DNA of 64,000 nt, taken from an uncultured Hyphomicrobiaceae bacterium (GTDB lineage: Bacteria; Pseudomonadota; Alphaproteobacteria; Rhizobiales; Hyphomicrobiaceae). Within the stretch, counting starts at the first letter, position 1. Each line of letters opens with the position of its first letter. Location of the stretch: assembly GCA_937873575.1 (NCBI GenBank), contig CALMPK010000336.1:26624-90623 (forward strand). Reading direction: 5' to 3'. Shown one piece after another: positions 37,863 through 55,304 of the stretch. A program made the translations under genes and the position numbers. A model generated the notes under the pieces. That model was given only the letters and a program-made list of their open reading frames with translations, was not told the DNA's origin and did not search any database.

Positions 37863-37900
37863 CTGCCCGAAACTGCACGCGTTTCACCGCGAATCCACGT
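37863..37900 (+). repeat. Intergenic repeat copy D (5' core only)
   Basis: CTGCCCGAAACTGCACGCGTTTCACCGCGAATCCA. It lacks the 3' CGCTCCGGCATCCTGATC box. Confidence 0.7.
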
Positions 37901-38125
37901 TCCTGGCGTTCTGCGGCGATGGCATTCTGCTGGCAGAAAACCATGCGGCACCGAGTTCCAGGACCTTCCACGATGCCCGTCAGCTCCAAGAGCAAATTAA
38001 AGACCAAACGCAAGTTGTCGGTAGCCTCGTCAGCCCCTTGTTCCGCTGGCCGGAATTCTAACACTGTGAGTGCGACACGATCATCGATCCCGCATCATCC
38101 CACTGAGGGCTTGGCCCCGCGGACG

Positions 38126-38609: not shown

Positions 38610-41600
38610 TTATGCTAGCGGCAATGTTGTATCGAGTTGCCGCACCAGGTGTACCGCGGAGTCAATTTCCATCACGTCCACATCTTCGCCTAGGCCCTCC
38701 TGCGCGAGATCAACTACATGTCTGTGGTGCGTGAATAGGATCGGCTGCACGTCCTGCGAAAGACCCGCCAGCGCAACGAGGCCGTTCATCGTGCGGGCAT
38801 CGTCAAAGGTCATGAACAAGTCGTCGCCGAGGAACGGGATCGGTTCGGACCGCCTGGCGTAGTCTTCCAGATAGGCCAGCCGCAGAGCCAGGTAGAGCTG
38901 GTCGCGGGCGCCCTCGCTCATACCCTCCACGTGCACATCCTCGCCACCGGGGCGCCGTCCGATAAGACGCAGCACGTCGTTGTCGTCGAGCTCCTGGCCG
39001 AGGCCCGCGAAAGCGCCACCGGTGATGGTCGCGAACAGTTGTCCCGCCCGAAGCATCAAGGGATCCTGTTGACTGGTTCTTTGTCGTTCGATTGCCGCGC
39101 CCAACAGCATACTGCCAAGCTTCAGGATGCTCCATTCGCGTGCCGACGCGACCAGTTCCGCCTCAGCGCTGCGCTTCTGAAGCGCAGCAAGTTCCGCGCC
39201 GCTCCCCTGCTCGAGAGTTCGCCGCTCCGCCACGGCCTCCTTGTGTGCGGCAAATGCCTCGTTCGCGCTGCGATCCAATTGCTCGTTCTCAAGCTCCAGG
39301 TTCGTGAGCTTGCCCGTCGCGAGGTCCGGATCGAAAATCGCGAGCTGCGACCGCAGCTCGTCTTCCGGTAATCCGTCGGCCTGCGCCAATAGCTGGCCGC
39401 GGAGTTTTGCGAGTGATTGGACAAGACTGTTGCGGGACTTTAAGCGCCGACAGAGCTCCTGCAGATCCGCATCTCTGGGCAAACGTTTCACCAGCTGAGC
39501 GAGAGCGGATTCCGCCTCAGAGAGTGCAAGAACGGCTTGTTCCTTTCTGCGCATGGCCTCCGATAGATGCTTCTCGACCTCGCCGTGCCGAGTGCTCGCT
39601 TTCGTAGCCTCCGCCAGACGCCCGTTGAGCTGCCTCATTGCAGTCTCTGGTGCCAGAACCATAAGGTCCGGTGCGACAGCGGCCACGACAACGGCGATCT
39701 TCTTCGCGAAGGCCGCCATATCGGTTTGCATTCCGGCGATCCGCCCCGCTCTGTCGTCACGGGCGCTGGTGGCTGCGGGCACTGCCTGCCACACCTCCAG
39801 TGCCGCCTGCGCTTGTTCGATTGTGGGGCCGTATGCGCTTATGGCCGCCACCGCCGGCTCCCACCGCGCCTGCCACACCCCGCGCTTCTCTTCCAATTGC
39901 TTCTTCTGACGCTCGAGCTTTGCGACGCGATCGTGGGCGGCACGCATGCTCGTCTCGAAATCGCGGCGTCGGTTCCAGTCTTCGGTCATCTTTCGCAGCT
40001 GAACCTCGATCCTTTGCGCAAGCGCTGTCGGCTCGAGCCCCGCGAAACCATCGAGTCCGACTGCGCTCGCCAGCCGGGACAACTCGGGCGCTATGGCTTC
40101 TATGGCAGTGTCGACAGCATCCAGCCTGCCTTTGGCGTCCCGGACTTCCTCCCGCTTCTCCAGAAGCTTGCCGACCCCGTCGAGCCAGACGAGCATCTCT
40201 GCGGGCGGGAGCGGACGGGAGATGCCGCACTGCGACCATTCTTCTTCATATGCCGCCCATTCCTCGCGCCGGCGTCGGTCGAGGTCAGCGAGATGCGCCA
40301 GTAGATCGGTATGCGTGCGTCGCGCCTCCGACAATTGCCGCTCGGTCGCCGCAAACTCCGCCACGTGGGACGCATCGATTAGAGCGTCGTCAGACAGCCT
40401 GTCCGCATCGGCTGCATTGCGCTCGAACTCTCGCACGCTATCCGGCACGGCTACCGCCGGAAGGTGATCCGCCTCACCAAGCAATGTGGACCGCAATCCC
40501 TGCCAGATGAGGTCCCGGCGGCCCCGCTGCTCTGCTATGGCCTCGCGAGTTGGAACGGGCCGCTCAGACCCGAAGGCCATCAAGTGCTGCTCGAGCTTAC
40601 GAATGTTAGCTTCGATTTCGGAGCGGCGATCCGCCGAGCGGTCTCTCTCCTTGTCGATCCCGTCCAGGGTCTTGCGAAATCGCGCGAGCGTCTCGCTCGA
40701 CGGCAGCTTCGAGGTCGCAATGACATCGATGGACACGGGCAATGCCGGCTTGAGGCGGTTGCCGCCCTCTGCCAGCTGACGGTTCAACTTCGCGAAACTG
40801 GAAGCGAGCTCGCTGTGACGATCGATCTGGCGCAGAACCGGGGCATGCGCCGCCAGGCGGTCGGAGAATGGCTTGGGATCGATGGCTTGTCCGAGCGGCT
40901 CCGCTTCATTCCGGAGCTGTTCGAGCTTTCCCTGCTCCTCCACAAGTTCCGCTTCATTGGTCGAGATCGATGATTGCAATTTGCCGCCCTCCCCAATGAG
41001 GGTCCGGGCCAGCGCCAATGCCGCATCGCTAGGCCTTGCTCTCTCCATGGCCGGTGCATCCGGTAAGCCAAGTCGCCGCGCATACTCCTCGAGCTGCCCG
41101 GAATAGAGGCGCACTTCGCGCTCGACGGCCGGGATATCCGCCTGGGCTTTCGTGTAGGCACCGAGTTCGCCGAAGAGGCGGACGATTTCCGCTGCACGAG
41201 CCAGCGGCGCCGGATCGAACGTGATGGCCGCCAGATTTGTTCTGGCTTGATGCTCGTCCCGATCGGTCCGGTCCCGAGTCTGGAGTGCTGCATCCCTCGC
41301 TGCGATGCCCGCCTCGAGTTGCTCAGCGAAGCCGGCCTCGACATCGGGCAGGCCACCTAGAGCGGCCAGCGTGCCGACCTCGGCATCGATCTGAGCGATC
41401 AGCGGACCGACGCGCCTCAGGCGCGATAATCGGGCGTGCTCGGCGCCATTGTCCTGACGCTTCTGCTTGATGCTTTCGAGCTCGGCCGCCAGCTGGTCAA
41501 TCTTCTCGTTCAGGTCCTTCCAATAGCCGGCTTTGAGCTCGCGGTCCCGTATGGCGCGACTGGCGGTAGTGAAGCGCTCCAGAGACTGATAGAACGCGCG

Positions 41601-42140
41601 CTCCCTGGAGGCGCGAGGTGCGAAGATGGCGCTGGCCTCCAAATCGAGCTTCTGGCGCAGATCCGTAAGGCCGCGGAGGCCCGATGCGGCCGCAAACAGG
41701 CTTGCACCGACCTCGCCCTCGCTCTTCAGCATCTCTTCCGCCCCGGATCTCAGCGTCTGCGCATTGAGACCGAATGCATTGCAGAACACGTCGCGGGTGA
41801 TTGAGCCCAGGAATCCCACAAGAGCATCGTCGGGCAAGGCGGAATCGGTGTCGAAGTCGCGAAGCGTTCTCTTGTTGCCTTTGCGCCGCCGGAAGCTCAG
41901 CGTTTGCCCGGTGCGGTCGGCGATCGTCGCAGCGATGCGAAGCTCTCGCTGGTCGTGTAGAAAATCGTATCTGGTCTGCCGCTCGATCCCGAACAGAAGA
42001 TCCGTCACGGCCGCCAGTGCACAGCTCTTGCCGGCTTCGTTTCGGCCATAGACGACATGAAGTCTGGCATTCGGGCGGAAGGTCAGCGATTGGCCGACAA
42101 AGGGTCCGAAACGTTCGAGTTCGAGCTTTGCTAATCGCAT
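38610..42140 (-). CDS. Rad50/SbcC/YhaN-like AAA ATPase with long coiled coil
   Basis: MRLAKLELERFGPF plus Walker A GRNEAGKS at the N-terminus. About 900 aa of coiled coil. C-terminal signature MSEGARDQLYLALRLA and Walker B IPFLGDDLF. No CxxC zinc hook seen. The start is taken at 42140, 1 nt after the upstream stop. Confidence 0.85.
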   Translation of the reverse strand: MRLAKLELERFGPFVGQSLTFRPNARLHVVYGRNEAGKSCALAAVTDLLFGIERQTRYDFLHDQRELRIAATIADRTGQTLSFRRRKGNKRTLRDFDTDSALPDDALVGFLGSITRDVFCNAFGLNAQTLRSGAEEMLKSEGEVGASLFAAASGLRGLTDLRQKLDLEASAIFAPRASRERAFYQSLERFTTASRAIRDRELKAGYWKDLNEKIDQLAAELESIKQKRQDNGAEHARLSRLRRVGPLIAQIDAEVGTLAALGGLPDVEAGFAEQLEAGIAARDAALQTRDRTDRDEHQARTNLAAITFDPAPLARAAEIVRLFGELGAYTKAQADIPAVEREVRLYSGQLEEYARRLGLPDAPAMERARPSDAALALARTLIGEGGKLQSSISTNEAELVEEQGKLEQLRNEAEPLGQAIDPKPFSDRLAAHAPVLRQIDRHSELASSFAKLNRQLAEGGNRLKPALPVSIDVIATSKLPSSETLARFRKTLDGIDKERDRSADRRSEIEANIRKLEQHLMAFGSERPVPTREAIAEQRGRRDLIWQGLRSTLLGEADHLPAVAVPDSVREFERNAADADRLSDDALIDASHVAEFAATERQLSEARRTHTDLLAHLADLDRRRREEWAAYEEEWSQCGISRPLPPAEMLVWLDGVGKLLEKREEVRDAKGRLDAVDTAIEAIAPELSRLASAVGLDGFAGLEPTALAQRIEVQLRKMTEDWNRRRDFETSMRAAHDRVAKLERQKKQLEEKRGVWQARWEPAVAAISAYGPTIEQAQAALEVWQAVPAATSARDDRAGRIAGMQTDMAAFAKKIAVVVAAVAPDLMVLAPETAMRQLNGRLAEATKASTRHGEVEKHLSEAMRRKEQAVLALSEAESALAQLVKRLPRDADLQELCRRLKSRNSLVQSLAKLRGQLLAQADGLPEDELRSQLAIFDPDLATGKLTNLELENEQLDRSANEAFAAHKEAVAERRTLEQGSGAELAALQKRSAEAELVASAREWSILKLGSMLLGAAIERQRTSQQDPLMLRAGQLFATITGGAFAGLGQELDDNDVLRLIGRRPGGEDVHVEGMSEGARDQLYLALRLAYLEDYARRSEPIPFLGDDLFMTFDDARTMNGLVALAGLSQDVQPILFTHHRHVVDLAQEGLGEDVDVMEIDSAVHLVRQLDTTLPLA

Positions 42141-42141
42141 C

Positions 42142-43431
42142 TCACCCCCCCGTTGTATCGGCGGCGACACGGCTCACAACGAGCAGCCGAGCCTCTTCCA
42201 GCAGGGCCGCGAGGTCGCCTTCCGCCGCTGCCGCCTGGGCGAGGCCCTCGGGCAATTTGCTCCTGACTTCGGCTGCGATCCCCTCCGCCGCCCCGAGCAC
42301 GTCTGGCCTGCTCGCCAGCTCTGCGAGGATGGCAGGGAGATTGAAGGACGAGGCGCTGGCCGACACCGAGAGCTCGTTCGCATCGCGTGTACTTATGCGC
42401 AGCCTCTCGATCCAGATATCGTCACTGACGTGGTGGGCGACGGCCTGGACCTCGTCAGCCAGACGACGCGCGGAACTCTTGAGATGCTGATGCAGAGACG
42501 TGGCACCCGCAAGCGTGACGCGCATGGCGAGAAGTTTGTCGGCAGCCTTTTCAGCGTGCGGCGCCATCGCCTGCTTTACCGCCTCCAGGACGTCTCGCTC
42601 GTTCTCAAGCCCGGCCAACGGGACCTCGACCGACACCCAGCGTGCCGCATCGACGATAAGGCGGCGGACGTGGGCGACCTCTCCGTCGGTCACCTCGACG
42701 AGGACCGCGCCCTTGGGGCCGCACTCGCGTACACTGCGGCCTTGTAGATTGCCCGGGTAGATGACCCATGGGTCGCGCGACAGCTCCTCGTATTCGTGTA
42801 CGTGGCCGAGGGCCCAGTAATGATAGCCCCGCGATGCGAGGTCTGCGACCGTGCATGGCGCGTACGACGCGTGGCCGGGGCGGCCTGTGCACGACGTATG
42901 CAAAACACCAATGTTGAACCACCCAGGCACCGGCGCGGGATATTCGAGCGCATAATTCTCGGTTGCGGCCCGCTCCGCAAAGCTCCGACCGTGCAAGACG
43001 ACCTTCAGATGGTCGATCCGAAAGCTGCGCGCCTTGCCGGGCGGGAATTGATAGACGCTCTCCGGCAGAGTAATGGTTCTGGTGATAATGCTCTCAGCGT
43101 CGTGATTGCCCTTTAGCAAGAACAGCCCAATTCCCGCGCGATGCAGCCTTGCAATCTCTCGGTTGAAATAGAGGCCGATCGTATTGTCTTTCCAGTCGCC
43201 GTCGTACACGTCCCCCGCAATGACCACGAAGGATACCGCCAAATCGATAGCGCAAGTGATCAGTTGAGAGAACGCCTGTCGACTGGCTTCCGAGAAGCGC
43301 CGCGCGATCTCTTCGTCCTTGATGGTAAGACCCACTAGCGGGCTACCAAGGTGAAGATCGGCCGCGTGAATGAAAGTGAATGATGTAGTCGTGCTGGACA
43401 TGTTGGAATCGCCTCCACTCCCGGATGCCAC
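42142..43431 (-). CDS. Mre11/SbcD/YhaO-like metallophosphoesterase
   Basis: FIHAADLHLG, VVIAGDVYDG, LLKGNHD and ALGHVH phosphoesterase motifs. An alternative ATG start at 43401 has a GGAGG upstream. Confidence 0.85.
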   Translation of the reverse strand: MASGSGGDSNMSSTTTSFTFIHAADLHLGSPLVGLTIKDEEIARRFSEASRQAFSQLITCAIDLAVSFVVIAGDVYDGDWKDNTIGLYFNREIARLHRAGIGLFLLKGNHDAESIITRTITLPESVYQFPPGKARSFRIDHLKVVLHGRSFAERAATENYALEYPAPVPGWFNIGVLHTSCTGRPGHASYAPCTVADLASRGYHYWALGHVHEYEELSRDPWVIYPGNLQGRSVRECGPKGAVLVEVTDGEVAHVRRLIVDAARWVSVEVPLAGLENERDVLEAVKQAMAPHAEKAADKLLAMRVTLAGATSLHQHLKSSARRLADEVQAVAHHVSDDIWIERLRISTRDANELSVSASASSFNLPAILAELASRPDVLGAAEGIAAEVRSKLPEGLAQAAAAEGDLAALLEEARLLVVSRVAADTTGG

Positions 43432-43461
43432 GCGCTAACCAGGTTGCTTCGAGCTCCGGCT

Positions 43462-46400
43462 TCAATCTGTTCTTCGGTCCCCTGAGCAGACGCCGGGTCC
43501 GGTGGCTCGCTGCCCCTCCGCTAAGCCGGCATCCTGCCCGTATACTGCCACCGCGCACAGGGCGTTTACGAGCCGCATCTGCTCGACGGTCTGGCAGGGG
43601 ACATCGAGCAGGCGCGGACTTGCGATCACGATCGAGAGCGCCTGGGCGCGGCTGATCGCGACGTTGAGGCGGTTCACAGAGAAGAGGAACTCGATGTTGC
43701 GTGGCAATTCCGCAGCGCTTGAGGTGGCCATCGAGACGATACAGATCGGCGCTTCCTGGCCCTGGAACTTGTCGACCGTGCCAACGCGGGCGCCGTCCGG
43801 CAGCGTACGTGCGAGCAGATTCACCTGCGCATTGTAGGGTGTCACGACAAGGATGTCCGCAGCGGTGATCTTGCGCACCTTGCCGTCGCGATCGCGGAAC
43901 GACTGGCCGTGCAGCGCGACGAACGCCTTGCGAACCGCCGCTGCCTCCTCTTCGCTAGATTGGCTGTTGCCCTCGTGGGCGACGGTCTGGAACAGCAGCC
44001 CCGCGGCCGGGAACATCTTCGCGCGGCGTTCGTCGAGGATGAGCGCTTGGCGCGCCGCGCCGCTATCGCTCATCAGGCGGCCGCCGTAGACAACTTCGGA
44101 GATGTACTTGCAGATCGCAGGATGCATACGGCGCGACACGGGGAGGAAGATGCCGCGCTCCGACGGCACCGTCGTTGCGTCGGCTAGCACGTGCGACAGC
44201 GCTGAGGCATCCGAGCCCGCGGGATGTACGCCCTGCACTGGCTGGGCAAGCTGCATAGGATCGCCGACCAGCACGATGTTCTTCGCGCACGAGCCCGCCG
44301 CTACGAGATCGGCTAGCGACAGCTGGCCGGCCTCGTCGACGAAGAGATAGTCGAACGTGCTGTCGTGTTCTTTCGCCGAGAACAACCAAGCGGTGCCGCC
44401 GACGAGCGGGTAACGCGACAGTCGCGCGTCCTTCGGGGAATTGGTTACGTCTATGCCAACGTCTTTCAGCGCATCGCCGTCGTCGGCCTTCTTCACGGCC
44501 TTGAGCTCGTAACCGTCCTCCGCCGCGCGCTCGGCGACAGCAAGCATCAGGTTGTCAATCGCCTTGTGCGAGTTTGAAGTCACAGCCACGCGCTTGCCCG
44601 ACTGCAAGAGCGCGACGATCGCTCGCGACGCGACGTAGGTCTTGCCCGTGCCCGGCGGTCCCTGGATCGGCAGATAGCTGTCGCGAAGACGATTGATCAC
44701 ATCGACAGTGGCGCTGACCAGCTCGGCATCTGCTGCGATGATGGGCTTGCCGGCCTTGATGCCTCTTATACTGGGCAGCGCGCCCATCAGAATCGCCTCG
44801 ATTGCGGGATAGCTGCAGCCATTATCGAACACGTCTTCGGCGACGCGCGCGACGGCCTCGCGCTTGACAAGGTTGTCGATCGGCCCCGCGGGAATCAGAT
44901 CGAGTGTCTTCGGCGGCTTTCCTACGCTCGGGCCGAACTTCACCACTACCTCTCTCGTGTCGGCGTCGAGACTGAGCAGCGACACCGTCGGAATGTCATC
45001 CAGCTTGGCGCGCACTCGCGATTTCTCGTTGAGCTTCGTCTCCTGCTCGGGGAAGCGGTAGGTGCGCGCCAACGACTGTTTTTCCGGCCGAGCCGGGCCG
45101 ATCGCCTCGAGGCCGGCCAGACTTTCGAGGTCGTCGATGAGGTCGTCGGTCTCGCGTTGCGCGCGATCGAACACGCCCCACCACTGCGGCTTGTCCTCGC
45201 GCTTGTGATACCACATCAGCTCGAACAGCAGCTCGGCCGGCGGGCCGGCGAGGGGCCCAGTTACACGCGAAAGCAGCGTGCGGATCTTCTCGCGCTCGGT
45301 CTCCTCGGCGTTCGCACGCTCATCGGCGCCGGGCTTGCCGTCTTTGACCTCCTTGAGATCTGCCCACGGCATCTGCTTTGGCCGCGCCTCCTTGATGAGC
45401 CAGTCGCGCAATCCCTTGGTCGATTTGCAGTCGAACTCGTTGTAGGCGCGGATGCCCGCGAGCAGTGCGTCATCGCGGCTCTCGCGCCACCTCTCGTAGA
45501 CGACGATGCTGTCGCCGGCACTCGTCACGTCCTCGTTGCGCTTCTCCGAATAGAACACCTCGAGGTCCTTGATCGAGTAGCCGGCCTCGGACGCGATGAT
45601 GCCTTGCTGCACGACGCGATAAAGATCGACGAAGCGCTGCTCGCGCAGCAGGCGGTCGAGCTTGGCCTCGCCCACGCCGTGCTTGGCGACGAGCCGCTTC
45701 AGCGCCGTCACCTCGTAGTGGTTGTAGTGATAGATGTAGGCGTCAGGGTGCTTGCGCAGGTGCGCGTCGAAGAACGCGAGCACGGCGCGCGTCGCCTCGC
45801 GCTCTTCCTCCGGGGTGTGCGCCCAGAATGCCTTGAACTGGCCGCTACCCTTGACCTCGTACCAGACGCCGAACAGGTACTCGAGACCGCCCTCGATCAG
45901 CGGATCGCCCTCCATGTCGAAGAAGAGATCGCCGGCATTCGGCTTCAGCATGCGCGCGAGCCCCATGCCCGGCTCGGCGTTCTCACGCAGCTTGAAGGCC
46001 GGAGGGCCGCCCTGGCGGCGCTTGTGCTGCAGTGCGGCCTGCTCGCGCAGCTTGGCGTGCGTGTCCGCCTTGAGATCGGGCACCGGCGTCTTGCACTGAG
46101 CAAGCTGACCGAGCGTCGCGACGCCGGCGGTCTCGAGCTTCAAGCGCTGGTCCTTGCGAATGCCGGCGACGAGCACGAGGCTGTCCGTCTCGTCCCACTC
46201 GGTCTTGCAGTGCTCGCGCCAGCGGCACAGGCTGCACGCCGAGCACGGTTCGGGCCGCGTCGGCTCCGGCCCGGCGATGAAAGCCTCGAGCCGGCGACGC
46301 AGGTGCCGGGCGTAGTGCATGTAGTCGGCGAGCCGCAGCGTCGCGAGCTTGCCGGTGCCGAGCTTCACGTGGATGTGCTCCGGCAGAACGCCCTGGATCT

Positions 46401-46905
46401 CGGCCACGAGGTCCGAGTAGAGCGCGAGCTGCAGCACATGGCTCGGCGCTTCCTTGCGCTTGAGCTTTGTGTCCTCGACCTCGTAAGAGGACGCGCCGAG
46501 CTTCGAGGGACGCTCGACGCGCCGCAGGAAGTCGGCATAGCCGCCCCAGCCGTCCCCGAAGAGAGCTGCCTGAAAGATGACCGGTTTGCCGGCCTTCATC
46601 GCCGCGATCGTCATCGCGCGCTGGTCGTCGAGACCGGCGAGCTTGGTCTCGATCATGGCGACGTCGGTGCCTGCCGATTTGAACTCGGCCAGATACGCGC
46701 GCTCGTGCGCGTCGCCCTTCTTCTGCAGCAGAGCAGCGGTCTCTGTGTCCTCGATGGGCACGAGCTTGCCACCGGGCTTGCCTGCTCCTCCACGGTTGCC
46801 GCGCGCGCCGAGATACTCGAGATCGAGCGCCGTCGCGTGCATGCAGCCCTGAAACCGCATCAGGTCCGATGCGGACAGTATGATCTTGCCGTTCTCACGT
46901 TTCAT
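43462..46905 (-). CDS. Cas4/RecB-like PD-(D/E)xK nuclease (TM0106-type) fused to an SF1 (Upf1/Dna2-like) helicase
   Basis: N-terminal Cys (FQGCMHA) plus a CSACSLCRWREHC cluster typical of Cas4-like Fe-S nucleases. Helicase motifs GPPGTGKTY, LFVDEAGQ, LVGDPMQL, VVTPYNAQ, KFQGQEA and LNVAISRAQ. Confidence 0.85.
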   Translation of the reverse strand: MKRENGKIILSASDLMRFQGCMHATALDLEYLGARGNRGGAGKPGGKLVPIEDTETAALLQKKGDAHERAYLAEFKSAGTDVAMIETKLAGLDDQRAMTIAAMKAGKPVIFQAALFGDGWGGYADFLRRVERPSKLGASSYEVEDTKLKRKEAPSHVLQLALYSDLVAEIQGVLPEHIHVKLGTGKLATLRLADYMHYARHLRRRLEAFIAGPEPTRPEPCSACSLCRWREHCKTEWDETDSLVLVAGIRKDQRLKLETAGVATLGQLAQCKTPVPDLKADTHAKLREQAALQHKRRQGGPPAFKLRENAEPGMGLARMLKPNAGDLFFDMEGDPLIEGGLEYLFGVWYEVKGSGQFKAFWAHTPEEEREATRAVLAFFDAHLRKHPDAYIYHYNHYEVTALKRLVAKHGVGEAKLDRLLREQRFVDLYRVVQQGIIASEAGYSIKDLEVFYSEKRNEDVTSAGDSIVVYERWRESRDDALLAGIRAYNEFDCKSTKGLRDWLIKEARPKQMPWADLKEVKDGKPGADERANAEETEREKIRTLLSRVTGPLAGPPAELLFELMWYHKREDKPQWWGVFDRAQRETDDLIDDLESLAGLEAIGPARPEKQSLARTYRFPEQETKLNEKSRVRAKLDDIPTVSLLSLDADTREVVVKFGPSVGKPPKTLDLIPAGPIDNLVKREAVARVAEDVFDNGCSYPAIEAILMGALPSIRGIKAGKPIIAADAELVSATVDVINRLRDSYLPIQGPPGTGKTYVASRAIVALLQSGKRVAVTSNSHKAIDNLMLAVAERAAEDGYELKAVKKADDGDALKDVGIDVTNSPKDARLSRYPLVGGTAWLFSAKEHDSTFDYLFVDEAGQLSLADLVAAGSCAKNIVLVGDPMQLAQPVQGVHPAGSDASALSHVLADATTVPSERGIFLPVSRRMHPAICKYISEVVYGGRLMSDSGAARQALILDERRAKMFPAAGLLFQTVAHEGNSQSSEEEAAAVRKAFVALHGQSFRDRDGKVRKITAADILVVTPYNAQVNLLARTLPDGARVGTVDKFQGQEAPICIVSMATSSAAELPRNIEFLFSVNRLNVAISRAQALSIVIASPRLLDVPCQTVEQMRLVNALCAVAVYGQDAGLAEGQRATGPGVCSGDRRTD

Positions 46906-46951: not shown

Positions 46952-46970
46952 TGACAAGAAGTGTCATGCG
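46952..46970. promoter_or_regulatory. Inverted repeat TGACA-N5-TGTCA followed by TGCG, upstream of the nuclease-helicase operon
   Basis: It lies 47-65 nt upstream of the start at 46905. TGTCATGCG (46962-46970) is the reverse complement of CGCATGACA at 48206-48214. Confidence 0.4.
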
Positions 46971-47178: not shown

Positions 47179-48174
47179 ATGACCTTCCGCAAAGCCGAGC
47201 AGCTGATCGAGTTGGCGACGATGGTGGCCGCACGTCACAGCGGCGTCACGCTCGACGATGTGGTCGAGCGGTTCGAGGTGTCGGGGCGAACGGCGCAGCG
47301 GTATCTGCACGCGCTGGAGGTTCAGTTTCCCGACACGCACACGTCGATCGACGACGTGGGCCGCAAGCGCTGGCGGCTGCCGTCGGCGCCGCTGCGAGAT
47401 CTGATGACGCTGTCGGCTGAGGAGCTGGCCGCGCTCGATCTTGCGGTCGAGACGCTGCGTCACAATGGACTCGGTGTCGAGGCCGACGATCTGCTTGCGC
47501 TGCGCGAGAAGATGCTAGCGCTGGTCCCGCGCGCTAAGGCTGCGCGGCTCGAGACCGACCACGAGGTGCTGCTCGAGGCGCAGGGGCTCGCCGCGCGTCC
47601 TGGACCCCGCCAACGCATCGACCGTCACGTCGCCCAAGCGATCGCCGAGGCGATCAAGTCGTGCCGCATTTTGGAGGTAAGCTACCGGGCACGTGACGAG
47701 GTCCAAGCACGGCCACGTCGCCTCGCACCCTATGGCCTGCTCACCGGCATCCGCCGCTATCTCGTGGCACGGCCGGAGGAGGAGCCGGACGCAGCGCCAC
47801 GCCTCTACGTAGTCGAGAGCATCCGCGGAGCGCGAGTCACCGACGAGGCCTCTACTCGCGATCCAGCGTTCAATTTGCAGGCGTTTGCTCGACGTTCCTT
47901 CGGCGTGTTCCAGAACCCGGAGGAATATGGCGAGGTTGTCTGGCGCTTCTCGCCCCGAGCGGCCGCTCACGCTCGCGGCTTCGAGTTCCACGCGAGCCAA
48001 ACGATGGAGGACCAGCCCGACGGTTCGTTGATCGTGCGCTTCTGGGCGTCCGGCCAACTCGAGATGGCATGGCACCTCTACATGTGGGGCGACGACGTCG
48101 AAGTGCTTGCGCCGCCCTCACTAAGCGAAATGGTCCACAACTTTCGGCGCAGGGACTTTCCGTCTCTTCCGTGA
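47179..48174 (+). CDS. WYL-domain transcriptional regulator (HTH-WYL-WCX architecture, BrxR/CapW class)
   Basis: N-terminal wHTH (VTLDDVVERFEVSGRTAQRYLHAL). Central segment ILEVSYRARDEVQARPRRLAPYGLL resembles a WYL domain. About 330 aa. Confidence 0.8.
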   Translation: MTFRKAEQLIELATMVAARHSGVTLDDVVERFEVSGRTAQRYLHALEVQFPDTHTSIDDVGRKRWRLPSAPLRDLMTLSAEELAALDLAVETLRHNGLGVEADDLLALREKMLALVPRAKAARLETDHEVLLEAQGLAARPGPRQRIDRHVAQAIAEAIKSCRILEVSYRARDEVQARPRRLAPYGLLTGIRRYLVARPEEEPDAAPRLYVVESIRGARVTDEASTRDPAFNLQAFARRSFGVFQNPEEYGEVVWRFSPRAAAHARGFEFHASQTMEDQPDGSLIVRFWASGQLEMAWHLYMWGDDVEVLAPPSLSEMVHNFRRRDFPSLP

Positions 48175-48475: not shown

Positions 48476-50323
48476 ATGTCTTCGATGCCGGATTTCGAGA
48501 AGCCGCGATGGCTGCGCGATCTCGTTCGCTTCCTGCCGCTGAAGAGTCAGTTCGTACTCTCCGGCAATGTGCGAGACCTGCAGATCTCATGCAACGCAAC
48601 CGGCGCAACCGCGCCCGTGCCGTTGGAGCACGCACTGCATGTCGAGCTGGCTGCGCAGGGATATGCCGCGACCGTCGTCTACGATCTCGTGTCGGGGTTC
48701 CGCGCGTTCGGTACCAGCGAGGCCGAGATCTCAGCCAGCCGCCAAGTGCTGCAGAGGCTCAACCTGACGCTCGATTCAGCCGGCAACGCGCCCGCAGGCG
48801 CAGCGCTGCTGATGGAGACGCTGGGCCGCTTCATCGCGCTCGACGGCCCGCCGGTGGCGCTCGTCATAGACTTCGCCTCGCGGCTCTTGGTGCGCAACGA
48901 TCTGCCAAGCGAGGCGGAGCAGCGGCTGTTCACGCACGCGCTGGTGCACGCTCACCGCGCCAGCGCCCGGCCCGCAGGGCCCAATCGCACGCCGGCCTTC
49001 AACACCATTCTGTGGGTCGTCGAGCGCGAGGGGAACCTGCCGGACTGGCTGACCATCGACAATCCGCGCGTGCGTTCGATCTCGATCCCGAAGCCCGACC
49101 GCAACGCGCGCGCCGTGCTCGCGCCGTCGCTACTCCGTCACATGCCGCAGGGTTCGGAGCTGGCGCCCGAGGTACTCGCCAAGATCGAGCGCGAGCTCGT
49201 CGACAACACCGAAGGTCTCTTGCTGCTCGACATGACCGCGATCTCGCAGCTCGCGCGCCGCGAGGGCATCGCGGTGATGAAGGTCGCCGACGCCGTGCGC
49301 CACTACAAGATTGGCGTCACCGAGGACCCGTGGGCCAAGATCCCGCGCGACAAGATTCGCGACGGTCACGCGACGATCACCAAGCGGGTGAAGGGTCAGG
49401 ACCACGCCGTGGTGCACCTGCTCGACATCATCAAGCGCGCGGTTACAGGCGTCGGCGGCCAGCGGCGCGGCGGCCGCCCCCGCGGCGTGGCGTTCCTTGC
49501 GGGTCCGACCGGCGTCGGCAAGACCGAGCTCGCCAAGACAGTGACGAGCCTCCTGTTCAACGACGAGACCGCCTACATCCGCTTCGACATGTCTGAGTTC
49601 AGCGCGGAACATGCCGACCAGCGCCTGATCGGCGCGCCCCCGGGCTACATCGGCTACGATGCGGGCGGCGAGCTGACCAATGCGATCCGCGAGCGCCCAT
49701 TCAGCGTCGTGCTGTTCGACGAGATCGAGAAGGCGCACCCGCGCATCCTCGACAAGTTCCTGCAGGTGCTTGACGACGGCGTGCTCACGTCGGGCCGGGG
49801 TGAGCGCGTATACTTCTCCGAGGCACTGATCCTGTTCACGTCCAACCTCGGCATCTACAAGAACGGCGCGGACGGCGAGCGCGTCGCCAACGTGACGGCG
49901 ACCGACGACTACGAGACGGTGCGCGCGAAGGTTCGCACCGAGATCGACCGCCACTTCAAGCAGGTGATCAACCGGCCCGAGTTGCTGAACCGCATGGGCG
50001 AGAACATCATCGTATTCGACTTCATCCGCGAGAATATTGCGCGCGATATCCTCGACGGCATGATCACCGATACGCTGGCGGATCTCGCCCGCGCCGACAT
50101 CGCCGTGACGCTCGAGCCGCAGGCGAGGCAAACGTTGAATGAGCTGTGCCTTGCGGATCTGTCGAATGGCGGACGCGGCATCCGCAATCGCGTCGAGGCG
50201 CATCTCGTCAATCCACTGGCGCGGCTGTTGTTCGAGAGCGGCGCTGGTGCCGGCAGCCGTCTCGCCATCTCGGGCGTCGAGGCCGACAAGGTCACGCGGC
50301 TCGTTGCACGGAGCGCGGCATGA
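48476..50323 (+). CDS. ClpA/ClpB-type AAA+ ATPase (single D2-like module) with uncharacterised ~330-aa N-terminal region
   Basis: Walker A GPTGVGKTELAK, IGAPPGYIGY, Walker B VVLFDEIEKA, sensor FTSN, and a D2-small-like tail (RPELLNRMGENIIVFDF). Confidence 0.8.
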   Translation: MSSMPDFEKPRWLRDLVRFLPLKSQFVLSGNVRDLQISCNATGATAPVPLEHALHVELAAQGYAATVVYDLVSGFRAFGTSEAEISASRQVLQRLNLTLDSAGNAPAGAALLMETLGRFIALDGPPVALVIDFASRLLVRNDLPSEAEQRLFTHALVHAHRASARPAGPNRTPAFNTILWVVEREGNLPDWLTIDNPRVRSISIPKPDRNARAVLAPSLLRHMPQGSELAPEVLAKIERELVDNTEGLLLLDMTAISQLARREGIAVMKVADAVRHYKIGVTEDPWAKIPRDKIRDGHATITKRVKGQDHAVVHLLDIIKRAVTGVGGQRRGGRPRGVAFLAGPTGVGKTELAKTVTSLLFNDETAYIRFDMSEFSAEHADQRLIGAPPGYIGYDAGGELTNAIRERPFSVVLFDEIEKAHPRILDKFLQVLDDGVLTSGRGERVYFSEALILFTSNLGIYKNGADGERVANVTATDDYETVRAKVRTEIDRHFKQVINRPELLNRMGENIIVFDFIRENIARDILDGMITDTLADLARADIAVTLEPQARQTLNELCLADLSNGGRGIRNRVEAHLVNPLARLLFESGAGAGSRLAISGVEADKVTRLVARSAA

Positions 50324-50982
50324 CGAGCATCGCCATCTCGCGTGTCCATTTCCCGGTCACGACGCTGGGGCCGCGCCGACGGCTGGGAATCTGGATGCAG
50401 GGCTGCTCGATCCGCTGCCCGGGCTGCATCTCTGCCGACACGTGGGCGACAGGCCGCGGCGTCGTCGCGCTGCCGCAGCTGTTGTGCCAGATCGCGCCAT
50501 GGCTCGACGAGGCCGAGGGCATCACCATCTCGGGTGGCGAGCCGTTCGACCAGCTGGATGCGCTTGGTGCGTTGCTCACGCAGCTCCGCTCGCGGACGGT
50601 TGCCGACATCCTGGTCTACAGCGGCCATCCCTTTGAGATGATTGCAACTCAGGTTGCGCAAATGGACGGCCAGATAGATGCGCTGATCACGGATCCTTAT
50701 CTCAACGACGCGCCGCAAACGCTGGCACTCCGCGGCAGCGACAATCAACGCCTGCACTGCCTGACAGCATTAGGCGAGGCGCGTTTTGGTGCGCTGCGTA
50801 ATGCGCCAGCGGAGAAGGCAGCACTCGACGTCATGTTCGACGACGACGGCAGCGTCTGGTTCGCCGGCATTCCCGCACGCGACGACTGGGAGCAGCTGCA
50901 GCACCGCCTCGCAAGTTTTAGCACCAAAGTCACGACGAGCATGGATGCCTCCCCGCGAGCCGGGAGGGCGATGGAATCATGA
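50320..50982 (+). CDS. NrdG/PflA-like radical-SAM (4Fe-4S single-cluster) protein
   Basis: GCSIRCPGC (CxxxCxxC, nt 50404-50427) and ITISGGEPF. 220 aa. ATGA overlaps on both sides. Confidence 0.7.
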   Translation: MTSIAISRVHFPVTTLGPRRRLGIWMQGCSIRCPGCISADTWATGRGVVALPQLLCQIAPWLDEAEGITISGGEPFDQLDALGALLTQLRSRTVADILVYSGHPFEMIATQVAQMDGQIDALITDPYLNDAPQTLALRGSDNQRLHCLTALGEARFGALRNAPAEKAALDVMFDDDGSVWFAGIPARDDWEQLQHRLASFSTKVTTSMDASPRAGRAMES

Positions 50983-53900
50983 GCGAGAAACTCTGCCCGA
51001 GCTGTGGCCAGCGACGTCCCGCGAGCGAGGTGTTCTGCGCCAACGACGGCTGGGACCTGACGAGCGTCCCGATTGAGATCGCCGCGACCATTGCCGCACA
51101 GCCAGCGCCTCTGACAGAGGCGCCGCCCGCTGAGCAAAAATGCGTCAACGGGCACGCCGTGCGGCTGGGCGACTTCATGTGCCCGGAATGCGGCGCGGAT
51201 ATTGCGCCGCCGCCCGCTAACGGATTCGGAGAGAGCGAGCAGGCACCCTACGACGCAGGCGAAACAGTTGACGAGAATGCTGCCGGCCCCGCGCCTGCGC
51301 AACAGCCAGAGCCCGAGCTGCCCCGGATTGGCACATGGAGGCTTGCGGCGCGCATCGGCCCGGAGCAGGGCGCAACGGCGACGTGGCAGGTGCATCGCGG
51401 TGACGGCGACGAGCGAACGACGGCGGTGCTGGTTCATTACCCCCGCGGACTGCGACCCGATCCAGCGGTCGCCGCGGCAGCACAAGCACTGGCACCTCGC
51501 GTTTCTAATGTGATCGAGCGCGGCGAGCACGACGACCGCCCGTTTGAGGTCTATGAGACCGCCGGCCGCCGCACACTCCGTGAAGCGATGCAGCAGGACA
51601 TTGCGGCAGATCGCCTCCGCGCGCAGGTTACCTCCATCGCCGCCCTACTCGGCGAGATGGCTCGCGTCGGTTTGCGGCATCGAGACCTCCGGCCCGAAGC
51701 CATTCTCGTCGATGACAGCGAAAGCGCCAGCGTAAGTATCTGCCGGCTCGCTGTTGCCCGCCTGTCGACGCACGATCTCGATACGGCGCCGCTGCCGGAG
51801 ATCACGCGCTATACGGCGCCGGAGATGCTGGCCGGCGCGGTAACGCCGGCATCGGACTGGTGGAGCCTCGGCATCATCGTACTCGAGATCGCCACGCGCG
51901 GCGCGGCGTTCGAGGGCATCGACGACCAAGCGTTCCTGATGCACGTCGTCGCGCGCGGCGTCGAGATCCCCGAGGGCGTGCCCACCGACATCAAGCCGCT
52001 ATTGCAGGGCCTGCTCGCCAAAGATCGCGACGAACGCTGGCAGGCAGACGAGGTCGAGGCGTGGCTCGCAGGCAAGCCCGTCGCACTCCCGCAAGTCCCA
52101 GTGAGCAGCACTGCGACGGCGGATGCACTCGATGCACTCACTCTCTCGGGCCGTGCCTATCGCAGCGTGTCGGCCTATGCGCTCGCTGCCGCGCGCAAGG
52201 ACAGCTGGCAGGAGGCACGCGAGCAGCTGATCAGCGGGCGCTTGCCGCTGTGGCTCGAAGGCTTTTCGACGGGCGAGCGCATGCGTGCGGGCGTTCGCAA
52301 CGTCGTTCGCCGCGACGAGCTCGACGACGACACCAAGCTCGGTCTCGCGCTGAAGCAGCTCAATCCGGACATGCCGCTGGTGCGCGCCGGCGAGATCGTA
52401 ACGGCGGCTTGGCTGCTGCAGCATCCGGAGGAAGGCCATGCGCTAATTACCGGCCCGGCGCCGGAGCTCCTGCAGCACGGCGCCGAGGGCTGGCTCGTCC
52501 GTCTGAAGCAGCGTGCCGCCGAGGTGCGTCGACGACTAAAGGCGCAGGAGATCGAAGTTGACGATGCGAGCCTGCGCATCAATCTGCTCTCGACCTCAAC
52601 GCGCCAACTCGCCCAGATGTGGGACGAACAGCGCCGCATGCTGCCCGACAGCGAGCATCGCGGCTTAGCAGCGCTGATGGAGCGCGGCACACTGCGCGAG
52701 GAAGAGCTGATCATCCTGCTGTCGGCGGCGAAAGGCCAGTTCGTGCCGCTGACCGAGGCTGTCGCGGTTGCCTCGCAACTGGCGCGCCGCGAGGGGATCA
52801 CGACGTTCGATGAAGGCTCGGCTAGCGAACTGCTGCAGTTGCCACGGCGCGAGATCCTGGAGCGCGTTAACGCTTGCGTCGAGGGCTTTGCGCGCTCAGG
52901 CCACGAGCGCATCGACCAGTGGATCGACCAGTACCGGCTCGAGCGCCGCATCCCGCTCTCCCGCGCGGTCGTAGTGCTGTCACTGCCCGCGAGTGCGTGG
53001 ACCAAGCCGCCGCGCCAGGACTACGTGGCGCGCCTGCTCTGCCATTTCGAGAAGAGGATCGGCACGTCCGTCTCGCGCGGTGCGCTCGCCCGCATGACGA
53101 TCACCAAGAGCAGCGCGCGCATCGACCTGAGCGAGCTCGGCACGCGGCGCAATCGCGCCACGGCGCTGCTCGATCACATTCTCGAGCGTACCGATGCCCC
53201 CGTCGACGTCGACCCGGCAGCGTTTGACGCCACGCCGCAACTCGAGCAGCGTCTGCGCCGGCTCGTACGCGATGCCGACCTGCAACGGCGTGAGACCGGC
53301 ATCAATGGCCTCTACCTCGGCTTCCCGTTCGTGCTGATGCGGCCACGCGGTGAGGAGACCAAGCCACGCATCGCGCCAGTGCTGTTGTGGCCGGTCTCGA
53401 TCCACGCCGAGGTCGGCCAACGCGCCCGCTTTCGCCTCGCGTTCGATCGCGACCGCGAGGAGGTTCGGCTCAATCCCGCGCTGCAAAACATGCTCGCGCC
53501 TGACGCGCTTGAGAAGTGGGACGCGGCGCGCGATCAGGTGCTGGCCGGCACCGCGACGGGAACAGCCGTGATGGACGAGCTGCGCATGCTCGCAGACAAG
53601 GTGCGCGTGGCTAGCTTGTGCCCGCTGCCGGGTGCGGACACAAAAGTGGCCTCGGATAAGATCGAGCTGACGTCGGCGGCCGTGCTGTTCCACGTCACGT
53701 TCGTGGGCCAAGCGATCGTCAACGATATCCATCAGCTGCAATCGATCCCGCCGGCCGGTTCCGGCCTGGAGACCCTGATGCGCAGCGGCGCGGAGCAGAA
53801 CAGGCTCTCCGCAGATGACACATCGTCGGCGACCGAGGTCGACCGCTACGTCACCGCCGACAGCGATCCGGCGCAGGACCGCGCCGTTGCGCGTGCACGT

Positions 53901-55304
53901 CTCGGCCCCGGGCTCGTGATCGAGGGGCCGCCCGGAACCGGTAAGAGCCAGACCATCGTCAATCTCGTCGCCGACGCGATCGGGCGCAAGTCGAGCCTGC
54001 TGATCGTGTGCCAGAAGCAGGCGGCACTCGACGTCGTGTACAAGCGCCTCGAGCGCGAAGGGCTCGGCGAGCGCATCGCGATGGTGACGGACCCGACCAA
54101 GGACCGTCGCGCGTTGCTGGAGCAAATCCGCAACCAGCTCGACCACTTGCGGGCGAACGGACGTAACGGGCCGACATGGCAGCGTCAGCGTGCCGCGGTC
54201 GTCGAGCGCATCTCCCGCCTTGAGGCGCAGCTCAACGCGCGTCACGACGCGCAACGCCGTCGCGACGATGCCTCGGGCCGCACCTATCGCGAGACGCTGT
54301 CCGAGCTGATCGAGATCGAGGCAGACGGCGCGCTTTCAGATTTTGTGGCACTGCGCAGCCTGCTCGCCTCGACAAGTGCCGAGGAGGCCGATGCGGTCGC
54401 CGAGCAGTGCGGCGCACTCGCGTCGCTGTGGCACTCCGCCCGCTACGAGAACAACGCACTGCATGCGCTGAAGCCCTTCGGCATCGAGCCGGGCACGGTC
54501 GAGCGCTGCTTACGCGACATTGAGGCGTTCGTCGTGGCAGAGCGGCGTCGCATCGAGGTGATCGACAAGCGCAGCCTGAGCATCGAGGTCCCCGATGCAG
54601 CCGCGCTGGGGTTGTGGGCCACACAGAATGCGCCGAGCCTCGCCAAGCTCAGCAAGGCCGAATGCGACGAGCTTGGGCGCTTCGTCGCTGCTTTCGAGCA
54701 GACAGGGGGCAGAAGCACCATCGACACACTGGCCGGCATCCGCAGCGAGTTGGCCGAGGTGCGCGAGCCGCGAATCGATCCGCGAATGGCCACGTTACTG
54801 ATCGATCAAGGCGATCTCGAGCTCGACGGCTGGATCGCGCTCGCGGCCGACGCATTGAAGCCGCGCGGATGGCTTGCGCGCCTTCTGGGTGGCGGCAAGA
54901 CGGCACGCCGCAAGCTGGAAGCGCTGCTCGCGCCGATCAGCCCCGTCGTCGGCGATCCGGTGATGCAAGCGTTTCTCGACGCGGCGAGCCACGAGCGCGT
55001 GCTGCGAGGCTACAAGGCACGGCTTGACGATGCGCGGCGGTCGGTCGGCGGGGACAGTGGCGGGGGGGGGGGGGCCCCCCCAGAGGTGTTCGGGGGCGGG
55101 CTTTTTTCCGGGGACGGAACCCCCGCCGCGGCGCCGGGGGGGGGGGGGGGGGCTGCATGCGACGTTTGCGTGGGCGCCCTGCCGCAGGCAAGCGATGGCC
55201 GCGGCATTGAAGGGAACGCCCGATGCGCTGGCGACGCTTTTCGACGCGATCACGCGGGCGCTGGCACACGACAGCGCGCAACGTGCGAGCCTCGGCGCGC
55301 TTGA
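50979..55304 (+). CDS. Giant protein, part 1: double Zn-ribbon, kinase-like domain, DUF4011-like region and SF1 helicase motif I; frame lost in the homopolymer segment near 55.06-55.15 kb
   Basis: CPSCG...FCAND and KCVNGH...CPECG ribbons. HRDLRPE (51678), YTAPE, DWWSLG. GLYLGFPFVLMRP...APVLLWPV. GPPGTGKSQT. The last roughly 80 codons of this ORF are Gly-rich read-out of G/C runs and are not credible protein. Confidence 0.75.
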   Translation: MSEKLCPSCGQRRPASEVFCANDGWDLTSVPIEIAATIAAQPAPLTEAPPAEQKCVNGHAVRLGDFMCPECGADIAPPPANGFGESEQAPYDAGETVDENAAGPAPAQQPEPELPRIGTWRLAARIGPEQGATATWQVHRGDGDERTTAVLVHYPRGLRPDPAVAAAAQALAPRVSNVIERGEHDDRPFEVYETAGRRTLREAMQQDIAADRLRAQVTSIAALLGEMARVGLRHRDLRPEAILVDDSESASVSICRLAVARLSTHDLDTAPLPEITRYTAPEMLAGAVTPASDWWSLGIIVLEIATRGAAFEGIDDQAFLMHVVARGVEIPEGVPTDIKPLLQGLLAKDRDERWQADEVEAWLAGKPVALPQVPVSSTATADALDALTLSGRAYRSVSAYALAAARKDSWQEAREQLISGRLPLWLEGFSTGERMRAGVRNVVRRDELDDDTKLGLALKQLNPDMPLVRAGEIVTAAWLLQHPEEGHALITGPAPELLQHGAEGWLVRLKQRAAEVRRRLKAQEIEVDDASLRINLLSTSTRQLAQMWDEQRRMLPDSEHRGLAALMERGTLREEELIILLSAAKGQFVPLTEAVAVASQLARREGITTFDEGSASELLQLPRREILERVNACVEGFARSGHERIDQWIDQYRLERRIPLSRAVVVLSLPASAWTKPPRQDYVARLLCHFEKRIGTSVSRGALARMTITKSSARIDLSELGTRRNRATALLDHILERTDAPVDVDPAAFDATPQLEQRLRRLVRDADLQRRETGINGLYLGFPFVLMRPRGEETKPRIAPVLLWPVSIHAEVGQRARFRLAFDRDREEVRLNPALQNMLAPDALEKWDAARDQVLAGTATGTAVMDELRMLADKVRVASLCPLPGADTKVASDKIELTSAAVLFHVTFVGQAIVNDIHQLQSIPPAGSGLETLMRSGAEQNRLSADDTSSATEVDRYVTADSDPAQDRAVARARLGPGLVIEGPPGTGKSQTIVNLVADAIGRKSSLLIVCQKQAALDVVYKRLEREGLGERIAMVTDPTKDRRALLEQIRNQLDHLRANGRNGPTWQRQRAAVVERISRLEAQLNARHDAQRRRDDASGRTYRETLSELIEIEADGALSDFVALRSLLASTSAEEADAVAEQCGALASLWHSARYENNALHALKPFGIEPGTVERCLRDIEAFVVAERRRIEVIDKRSLSIEVPDAAALGLWATQNAPSLAKLSKAECDELGRFVAAFEQTGGRSTIDTLAGIRSELAEVREPRIDPRMATLLIDQGDLELDGWIALAADALKPRGWLARLLGGGKTARRKLEALLAPISPVVGDPVMQAFLDAASHERVLRGYKARLDDARRSVGGDSGGGGGAPPEVFGGGLFSGDGTPAAAPGGGGGAACDVCVGALPQASDGRGIEGNARCAGDAFRRDHAGAGTRQRATCEPRRA

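Follow-up and report, generated by a model that had tools for sequence, protein, structure and literature searches.

Gene content of the locus

Three tightly packed genes on the minus strand, designated gA, gB and gC, were analysed in a window of 64,000 nucleotides (nt), the window being the whole stretch of DNA examined (positions 26,624 to 90,623 of contig CALMPK010000336.1, assembly GCA_937873575.1, from an uncultured Hyphomicrobiaceae bacterium). They encode a nuclease-helicase, a metallophosphoesterase of the Mre11/SbcD type and a long YhaN-type ATPase, respectively, and a gene for a WYL-domain regulator resembling DriD of Caulobacter crescentus is transcribed divergently from gA. All three are real genes with all of their catalytic motifs intact, and are listed below with lengths in amino acids (aa).

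43462..46905, minus strand: gA, 1147 aa (open reading frame (ORF) call)
42142..43401, minus strand: gB, 419 aa from the ATG at 43401 (the start used by gene callers on identical contigs)
38610..42140, minus strand: gC, 1176 aa from the ATG (ORF call)

An alternative start for gB, the GTG at 43431, was used in an earlier reading of this DNA (the first-pass annotation) and would give a protein of 429 aa, and the reading frame of gC is open further, up to a GTG at 42170. The gap between gA and gB is 60 nt with the ATG start or 30 nt with the GTG start, while gB and gC are 1 nt apart. The ORFs of the three packed minus-strand genes and their spacing, 1 nt and, if the GTG start is used, 30 nt, were borne out, as were the earlier domain assignments for the three proteins, which agreed with Pfam and NCBIfam profile matches and with motifs readable in the sequence. 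A simple promoter and terminator scan within the trio found no intrinsic terminator and no strong promoter consensus between the genes, its sole promoter-like match being located inside gA. The G+C content of the trio (0.62-0.64) was slightly below that of the flanks (0.65-0.69). The three genes are probably expressed as one transcript.

The nuclease-helicase gA

The gA protein matched the NCBIfam model for TM0106 family RecB-like nucleases (TIGR03491) over residues 60-503 with 262.2 bits against a cutoff of 97.45, the Pfam RNase_H_2 profile (PF13482) over residues 327-503, and the AAA_11/AAA_12 profiles of superfamily 1 (SF1) helicases over residues 745-1096. The parts of the protein were delimited as follows.

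motif residues between C21 and C233: N-terminal Fe-S iron-staple RecB/Cas4-like nuclease
about residues 327-503: RNase-H-like domain (PF13482)
about residues 527-672: helical stalk and beta-barrel
GPPGTGKT at 749-756 and DEAGQ at 857-861: SF1B helicase (motifs)

In an alignment of 49 homologues, the iron-staple cysteines (C21, C224, C227, C233), the RecB motif residues (D125, E142, D145, K147, Q159, Y163), the acidic residues of the RNase-H-like domain (D330, E332) and all of the SF1B helicase motifs were invariant. A Cys-cluster nuclease joined to an SF1 helicase had been recognised in the first-pass annotation and is upheld by TIGR03491 and AAA_11/AAA_12; the RNase-H-like domain, probably an exonuclease, had gone unmentioned.

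An AlphaFold (AF2) model of gA (predicted local distance difference test score, pLDDT, 87.9; predicted template modelling score, pTM, 0.82) was compared with the PDB using Foldseek. The top match was Dna2 (5EAN, E-value 1.2e-28), aligned over both full chains, followed by the helicase cores of Ighmbp2 and Upf1, and Ighmbp2, Upf1 and Dna2 were also the PDB sequence matches. Judged by its sequence and modelled fold, gA is a TM0106-family Dna2/Bad-like enzyme with an Fe-S nuclease ahead of a predicted 5'-3' SF1B motor. Dna2 belongs to the core replication and repair machinery, in contrast to the accessory and mobile gA.

The sole characterised bacterial enzyme of this architecture that turned up in the literature was Bad of Geobacillus stearothermophilus, an Fe-S cluster protein with single-stranded DNA (ssDNA) endonuclease and 5'-3' helicase activities, in which an Fe-S nuclease is followed by a conserved central domain left without explanation and by an SF1B helicase (PMC7430649). 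The neighbours of Bad are of the restriction type, and its authors suspected a new restriction enzyme (PMC7430649). Compared by architecture and residue positions alone, gA resembles Bad in its N-terminal four-Cys Fe-S RecB-type nuclease and C-terminal SF1B helicase, in its extra conserved central region, in the similar placement of the nuclease motif III aspartate and the Walker A lysine (D145 and K755 in gA, D150 and K815 in Bad) and in the restriction-type genes nearby. It differs in that a PF13482 RNase-H-like domain with invariant acidic residues is recognisable in the central region, and in being accompanied by a regulator of the DriD type and frequently by McrBC or Mre11/Rad50-like genes, none of which is reported for Bad.

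The phosphoesterase gB and the ATPase gC

The full Mre11/SbcD motif set ascribed to gB in the first-pass annotation was legible in the sequence, all five phosphoesterase motifs being present (D15/H17, D64, N99-H100, H168 and H200/H202 in the 419-aa numbering). The protein matched the Pfam Metallophos profile (E-value 9e-9). Its score against the NCBIfam SbcD model TIGR00619 was 48.3 bits, below the cutoff of 77.65, and it was far under the cutoffs of the Mre11 and SbcD equivalog models. In relatives, gB was always found alongside gC. On these sequence features gB is classed as an Mre11/SbcD-type metallophosphoesterase that is YhaO/SbcF-like.

The head of gC was of the YhaN type (PF13514 AAA_27, E-value 2.6e-68, profile positions 1-206 of 206) and carried the Walker A, signature, Walker B and H-loop motifs. 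No CxxC hook was found in the gC sequence, no Rad50 or SbcC chain was matched in a PDB sequence search with gC, and its homologues carry the NCBI name 'YhaN family protein'. In the AF2 model, an ABC head split between residues 1-180 and 1040-1160 enclosed a helical arm of about 860 aa. The earlier call of a YhaN-like protein without CxxC stands. A single central helix break in the arm, at residues 637-645, coincided with a PLPPAEMxxWL motif (residues 643-652; about 40185-40232 of the window) in which P643, P646, M649 and W652 were invariant. In the model this site is the probable apex of the arm, and it is a candidate for a dimerisation apex in place of the Rad50 zinc hook.

In Bacillus subtilis, SbcE (YhaN) and SbcF (YhaO) act in double-strand break (DSB) repair and competence, and SbcE has no zinc hook, while its central element, which is unique, contains a conserved proline (PMC2811018). 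The gC and gB proteins fit this description, since gC has a PF13514 head, no CxxC and a conserved Pro-containing central element, and the SbcD-like phosphoesterase gene lies directly upstream of it with a 1-nt gap. The gene order, with such a phosphoesterase gene just before that of a long SMC-like ATPase with a PF13514 head, is shared with SbcE-SbcF. The window pair differs from SbcE-SbcF in being alphaproteobacterial, carried on an integrative and conjugative element (ICE) inside a defence island, and placed by fusion downstream of a DriD-type promoter and a Dna2-like gene, and in that the locus has no yhaM-like exoribonuclease gene. The likeness to SbcCD/Mre11-Rad50 consists of the Mre11 phosphoesterase motifs and an ABC head split by a long coiled coil, as well as a nuclease gene that precedes the ATPase gene in the operon, as in SbcCD. 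It does not extend to the zinc hook, to the NCBIfam SbcD cutoff for gB or to a PDB match with Rad50 or SbcC for gC.

The DriD-like regulator and its operators

The divergent gene and two 15-bp boxes near it were located as follows.

47179..48174, plus strand: DriD-like wHTH-WYL-WCX regulator, divergent from gA (Pfam and DriD match)
46952..46966: operator 1, TGACAAGAAGTGTCA, a perfect palindrome and box of the DriD type, some 45 nt ahead of the gA start codon
48210..48224: operator 2, TGACAGTTTCTGTCA, a perfect palindrome located after the WYL stop codon and ahead of the AAA_2 gene

The regulator matched C. crescentus DriD (8tp8/9pfq) over its full length (residues 3-320, E-value 3.6e-52), and BrxR and CapW structures were unmatched at E<0.01 in a comparison with PDB sequences. 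The ssDNA-contact residues Y192, R204, Y168 and R178 were kept, W206 was replaced by tyrosine and K202 was lost. The presence of a WYL regulator had been noted in the first-pass annotation; its role as a fourth member of the locus, of the DriD type and with operators, had been missed.

The box, TGWCA-N5-TGWCA, was found by alignment of WYL-gA intergenic regions; a pattern with an N6 spacer gave zero matches and was rejected. Two perfect boxes were present in the window, against approximately one match (with at most one mismatch) expected by chance. Operator 1 overlaps a -35-like TTGTCA hexamer, and the reverse complement of operator 2, TGACAGAAACTGTCA, is closely similar to the DriD box of the Caulobacter driD/CCNA_03891 promoter, CGACAGAAACGGTCG (PMC13004042). 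Sites bound by DriD overlap the -35 position, and the binding of ssDNA turns DriD into an activator (PMC13004042, PMC9186387). The window regulator shares with DriD the full-length wHTH-WYL-WCX architecture and the key ssDNA-contact residues, and its boxes share a very similar palindrome, the position over the -35 and the divergent regulated gene; on this homology, it would be activated by ssDNA. In contrast to DriD it is carried on mobile elements, and boxes of its type precede nuclease-helicase, Mre11/Rad50-like, kinase-helicase-restriction endonuclease (REase), TIR and ubiquitin-like genes, whereas those of DriD precede didA, recA, recJ and bapE. It also resembles BrxR and CapW, being a WYL protein at the edge of defence genes that is plausibly ssDNA-responsive and possibly governs several systems (PMC9122601, PMC11662680), although by sequence it groups with the activator DriD and not with these repressors.

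The box was matched 34 times in 2.05 Mb of fetched related loci (numbered with the prefix L), and about three quarters of these matches were within about 100 nt of WYL gene ends or just upstream of gA. Both boxes were kept in L118-L120, in which gA is 69-89% identical, and were missing from loci without the WYL gene. On the plasmids pOM4 and pANY103c a second box was found directly upstream of gB-gC. DriD-type boxes were also seen at position 4820 of L123, 9297 of L112, 9324 of L122, 5857 of L101 and 4857 of L113. The boxes of this set precede a TIR-domain gene, a multiubiquitin-ThiF-DUF6527 operon and gB-gC, which suggests that one WYL regulator drives several neighbouring defence modules. 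In the plasmid pAA03 (L125, 4912-5894) the WYL gene is split into two ORFs and the box, gA, McrBC, HEPN and gB-gC are intact, so that this plasmid may represent a natural regulator knockout.

Distribution and linkage of the genes

Homologues of gA were found at no fewer than 598 loci in GTDB species genomes and in at least 5,797 protein clusters. Neighbourhoods were compared for the best 80 of the at least 598 species loci, about 70 of which were informative for neighbours, and for 13 plasmid loci, 12 of them annotated. The identical gA protein occurred in 43 assembly blocks, with DNA 99.85-99.98% identical across 16-23 kb, and full-length homologues were carried on 60 plasmids and in none of the phage records searched. 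The best GTDB species match was only about 50% identical. These figures agree with the accessory character proposed in the first-pass annotation and with mobility of the genes. A defence-island neighbourhood was likewise confirmed, by a giant PDC-S37/PD-T4-6-like gene in the window and by OLD, McrBC, dGTPase, TIR, HEPN, restriction-modification (RM) methyltransferase and Z1 genes in related loci.

The WYL gene was the divergent neighbour of gA in all 13 plasmid loci (split in pAA03). A phosphoesterase and SMC-like ATPase pair was near gA in 5 of the 12 annotated plasmid loci, in two layouts, and an Mre11/Rad50-like pair adjoined gA in 5 of the 80 species loci (L004, L005, L014, L025, L052). 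The commonest partner in species loci was McrBC, which had been missed in the first-pass annotation and outnumbers the Mre11/Rad50-like pairs: McrB and McrC were within about 3 kb downstream of gA in 13 of the 80, abutting or overlapping in several, and nearby in 2 more. McrB (AAA_5) and McrC (PF10117) come after gA, in some cases with reading frames that overlap, in L003, L009, L011, L012, L020, L026, L031, L035, L039, L043, L045, L049 and L051, and also in L123, L124 and L125. No description of a gA-McrBC pairing was found in the literature, and gA is not described in the CoCoNuT/McrBC census paper. Other genes downstream of gA in the 80 species loci were highly diverse. From these plasmid and species neighbourhoods, WYL and gA form a conserved core to which McrBC and Mre11/Rad50-like pairs of two subfamilies are facultative additions.

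The order gA-gB-gC was found in the window, in L118, in L004/5/14/25 and in the plasmids pSF1 and pMSHV, where the ATPase is a shorter SbcC-like protein (gA-exo-ATPase). In pOM4, pANY103c and pAA03 the order was gC<-gB<-WYL | gA, with an HEPN gene between gB and WYL and McrBC after gA in pAA03, and in L052 the order was gB-gC-gA. In all, gA is paired with Mre11/Rad50-like genes in three different orders, and the SbcC-like partner comes from two subfamilies.

Among the relatives of gC, gB was present in 12 of 14 loci and gA was within 8 kb in none of the 14. The closest (75% and 63% identical) are located in the same island, beside the same AAA_2, Fer4_12 and kinase-helicase genes found in the window, without gA. 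At 42-44% identity (Methylobacterium, Inquilinus) gB-gC occurred as lone pairs amid metabolic genes, and other relatives were beside cofactor-F420 genes, a UmuC-like polymerase, an SNF2 helicase or an Hhe-like helicase. The homology that the window shares with loci lacking gA sets in some 20 nt ahead of the gB ATG, which places the gA/gB junction as a fusion at the gB ribosome-binding site. The locus is a fusion of two separately mobile modules, WYL+gA and the YhaO/YhaN-type gB-gC pair. The linkage of the three genes proved to be facultative.

In the closest gB-gC relatives the slot of WYL+gA was occupied by an OLD-family nuclease gene (PADLOC Old, E-value 7e-85) in either orientation (L104, 4330-6435; L107, 4259-6346). 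The alternation of OLD and WYL+gA in one slot is cassette swapping within one island.

That each module is conserved without the other, that the island slots are visibly shuffled, as with OLD and WYL+gA, and that the genes downstream of gA are extremely diverse would all fit mere adjacency, in which WYL+gA and gB-gC are unrelated cassettes of a recombination-prone island that act independently and are co-transcribed incidentally. We consider this rather improbable, since gA is joined to such pairs again and again, in three arrangements and with members of two SbcC-like subfamilies, and since pOM4 and pANY103c carry a separate copy of this operator for gB-gC. The frequencies of 5 in about 70 species loci and 5 in 12 plasmid loci also argue against it, being well above chance for a pair present once or twice per genome on a rough, inferred estimate that is inflated by clustering within defence islands.

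Comparison with named defence and resection systems

No antiphage model covered gA, gB or gC over the full length in PADLOC v2 and NCBIfam scans, in agreement with the first-pass annotation, which had matched the trio to no named system; no PADLOC or NCBIfam defence family fits the three proteins. Memberships of MkoA/MkoC, DpdJ, Hhe, LmuB and PtuA were rejected, as the matches were partial and confined to generic helicase or ATPase parts. For Mokosh, the MkoA/MkoC matches were limited to the gA helicase (best stretches 848-1109) and there was no PLD domain; for Lamassu, the LmuB match was weak and partial (E-value 2e-10) and neither LmuA nor LmuC was present at the locus. Nhi gave no match at E<=0.01 in PADLOC-DB v2, which we take to include an Nhi model, and the Hhe matches spanned about 60 residues. 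The locus shares with Nhi, Hhe, Mokosh MkoA/MkoC, Lamassu LmuB and Gabija/OLD the island context and the logic of a helicase-nuclease or of an ABC ATPase with a nuclease, and differs from them in having no PLD, Vsr, LmuA or TOPRIM effector. Literature searches found no paper naming a WYL/nuclease-helicase system or the combination of gA with gB-gC, and nothing relevant for TM0106.

The archaeal HerA-NurA-Mre11-Rad50 operon, to which the trio had been likened, also combines an Mre11/Rad50-type pair with a helicase and a nuclease that serve end resection. The analogy fails on components: Pfam and NCBIfam scans of the locus found no HerA (FtsK-type hexameric ATPase) or NurA domain, the helicase and the nuclease are in one Dna2-like polypeptide, and the linkage is facultative. 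A closer analogy is Mre11-Rad50 with Dna2, MRN and DNA2 being the established resection pair of eukaryotes.

The first-pass annotation had read the three genes as a defence module for DNA-end sensing and degradation, here taken as an obligate, dedicated three-component system of the HerA-NurA-Mre11-Rad50 kind. Tight packing, probable co-transcription, retention of gB-gC beside an 89% identical gA in a metagenome relative, and the defence-island context are consistent with such a system. It is nevertheless very unlikely, because the genes are not conserved as three (gA of about 70% identity occurs without gB-gC, and gC of 63-75% identity without gA), no HerA- or NurA-type protein is present, and it is the WYL regulator, not gB-gC, that constantly accompanies gA.

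Proposed function

We propose, as an evenly balanced judgement, that the locus is an operon for DNA-end processing, inducible by ssDNA, which was assembled from two fused mobile modules and forms part of the cargo of a defence island on a conjugative element. In this proposal, ssDNA arising from DNA damage or from an infecting or transferring element would bind the WYL domain, and the regulator would engage the 15-bp boxes over the -35 and, by homology to DriD, activate gA-gB-gC. Through the second box it would also switch on the operon of AAA_2, radical SAM (rSAM)-like and kinase-helicase-REase genes. The Mre11-Rad50-like complex might recognise and open DNA ends, including hairpin or protein-blocked ones, after which gA could load onto the resulting 5' ssDNA and move 5'-3' while cutting. 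Linear or broken DNA would be destroyed processively, the likeliest target being invading phage or plasmid DNA. The core effector would be gA, with the SbcE/SbcF-type gB-gC pair as an accessory end-opener or recogniser. We infer both the cooperation of gA with gB-gC, physical or functional, and the substrate of this machinery; the defensive role is probable from association.

Several observations weigh against this proposal. DriD and SbcE/SbcF are damage and repair factors in the organisms studied (PMC9186387, PMC2811018), and no element for self/non-self discrimination is evident at the locus. About 65 of the 70 informative species loci have no Mre11/Rad50-like neighbour of gA, from which it follows that gB-gC is not needed for gA. 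On metagenome contigs a 69-70% identical gA is found without gB-gC, the WYL gene and the AAA_2/Fer4_12/kinase-helicase operon being kept; gB-gC persists without gA, and its distant pairs, amid metabolic genes or by a UmuC-like gene, look like housekeeping genes. The regulator is taken as an activator from homology to DriD only, and it may instead be a repressor, as are CapW and BrxR (PMC11662680).

A non-immune explanation is a mobile DNA-damage repair cassette in which the DriD-like activator senses ssDNA and induces two-step end resection. The Mre11-Rad50-like pair would perform short-range clipping and the Dna2-like enzyme long-range resection, with the result that the host or the ICE survives DSBs. 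DriD activates an SOS-independent damage response (PMC9186387, PMC13004042) and the regulator and boxes of the window are of that type; in B. subtilis, YhaN/YhaO have roles in competence and in the repair of DSBs (PMC2811018), and distant gB-gC pairs stand alone amid metabolic genes or by a UmuC-like polymerase. The partnership of MRN and DNA2 in eukaryotic resection is a further parallel. Both the cassette as such and this division of labour within it nonetheless appear unlikely, given that gA is patchy, borne on plasmids and ICEs, fused time and again to McrBC and set among defence genes, that OLD nuclease alternatively fills its slot, and that the same kind of box is found ahead of TIR, ubiquitin-like and kinase-helicase-REase genes.

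The inducible end-processing operon may be extended, more doubtfully, to a wider role in which a DriD-type ssDNA-activated regulator is the master switch of a mobile defence island and a Dna2-like core works with interchangeable DNA-breaking or end-opening partners (Mre11-Rad50-like or McrBC). If so, the locus would represent a bacterial immune counterpart of the two-step resection by MRN and DNA2 of eukaryotes, and a biological role would be found for the orphan enzyme Bad. Each of the parts is of a known kind (Dna2/Bad-like, SbcE/SbcF-like, DriD-like). What is new is their combination, the occurrence of DriD-type boxes across mobile defence genes, and the pairing of gA with both McrBC and Mre11/Rad50-like modules.

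A function in DNA-end processing would apply to a very large unnamed family, in which the at least 5,797 clusters are labelled only 'TM0106 family RecB-like putative nuclease', and by extension to the biochemically characterised, biologically orphan Bad/Dna2-like enzymes. It would also show DriD-type activators, known only from the chromosomal damage response, driving plasmid and ICE defence islands via 15-bp boxes, and would make an Mre11-Rad50-type complex one more repair machine that has been turned to immunity. Searching for the boxes is an easy way to find defence genes under common control, some of them possibly new.

Neighbouring genes and the mobile element

The features around the trio and the regulator gene were as follows.

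20-35 kb of the window: conjugation genes of a Trb-type type IV secretion system (T4SS)/ICE
between TrbI and gC: DUF736, MFS transporter, HTH_3 gene and AlpA-like ORF
48476-50323, plus strand: ClpB-like AAA_2 ATPase, 615 aa, in the operon behind operator 2
50320-50982, plus strand: Fer4_12 radical-SAM-activase-like protein, 220 aa, same operon
50979-57264, plus strand: kinase-DUF4011-SF1 helicase-MTES_1575 REase, 2094 aa, same operon
58827-58902, minus strand: tRNA-Ala(CGC)

The Trb-type genes bear out the ICE context recorded in the first-pass annotation, and the AbiEi remnant reported there was not recovered, no such Pfam match being found among the called genes at 33.4-57 kb. An att repeat of the tRNA-Ala and an adjoining integrase were sought in the window and neither was found. 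An alanine-rich, helical-looking ORF of 455 aa (57314-58681, plus strand) without a Pfam or PADLOC match lies between the giant helicase gene and the tRNA-Ala.

The operon behind operator 2 (48476..57264, plus strand) is context outside the trio. Its 2094-aa product matched the PADLOC candidate PDC-S37 and the PD-T4-6 kinase, and the block of AAA_2, Fer4_12 and kinase-helicase genes was conserved in L095, L104, L107, L119 and L120, whatever its neighbour. With a DriD-type box upstream, this set is a candidate for a defence system of its own. The 2094-aa gene is split into two ORFs by a patch of about 110 bp rich in poly-C/poly-G (55064-55172 of the window), which shows 32 mismatches and 3 indels against the otherwise 99.85% identical L095 contig. 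A biological frameshift was rejected, as the split coincides with this low-quality patch. Since the patch is missing from the 99.85% identical contig, the split is probably an assembly or sequencing artefact.

A 52-nt repeat occurred in four copies (62-100% identical) in the ICE part of the window, at 12183-12234, 21840-21891, 23087-23138 and 37851-37902. Three of the copies are in gaps between long ORFs treated as genes, and the last separates the HTH_3 gene from the AlpA-like ORF just downstream of gC; possibly the repeat serves the element as a regulatory site. The mobile region is flanked by two very large WD40-repeat proteins (14405-17695 and 61541-63904, both on the minus strand), the second of which has an N-terminal protein kinase domain.

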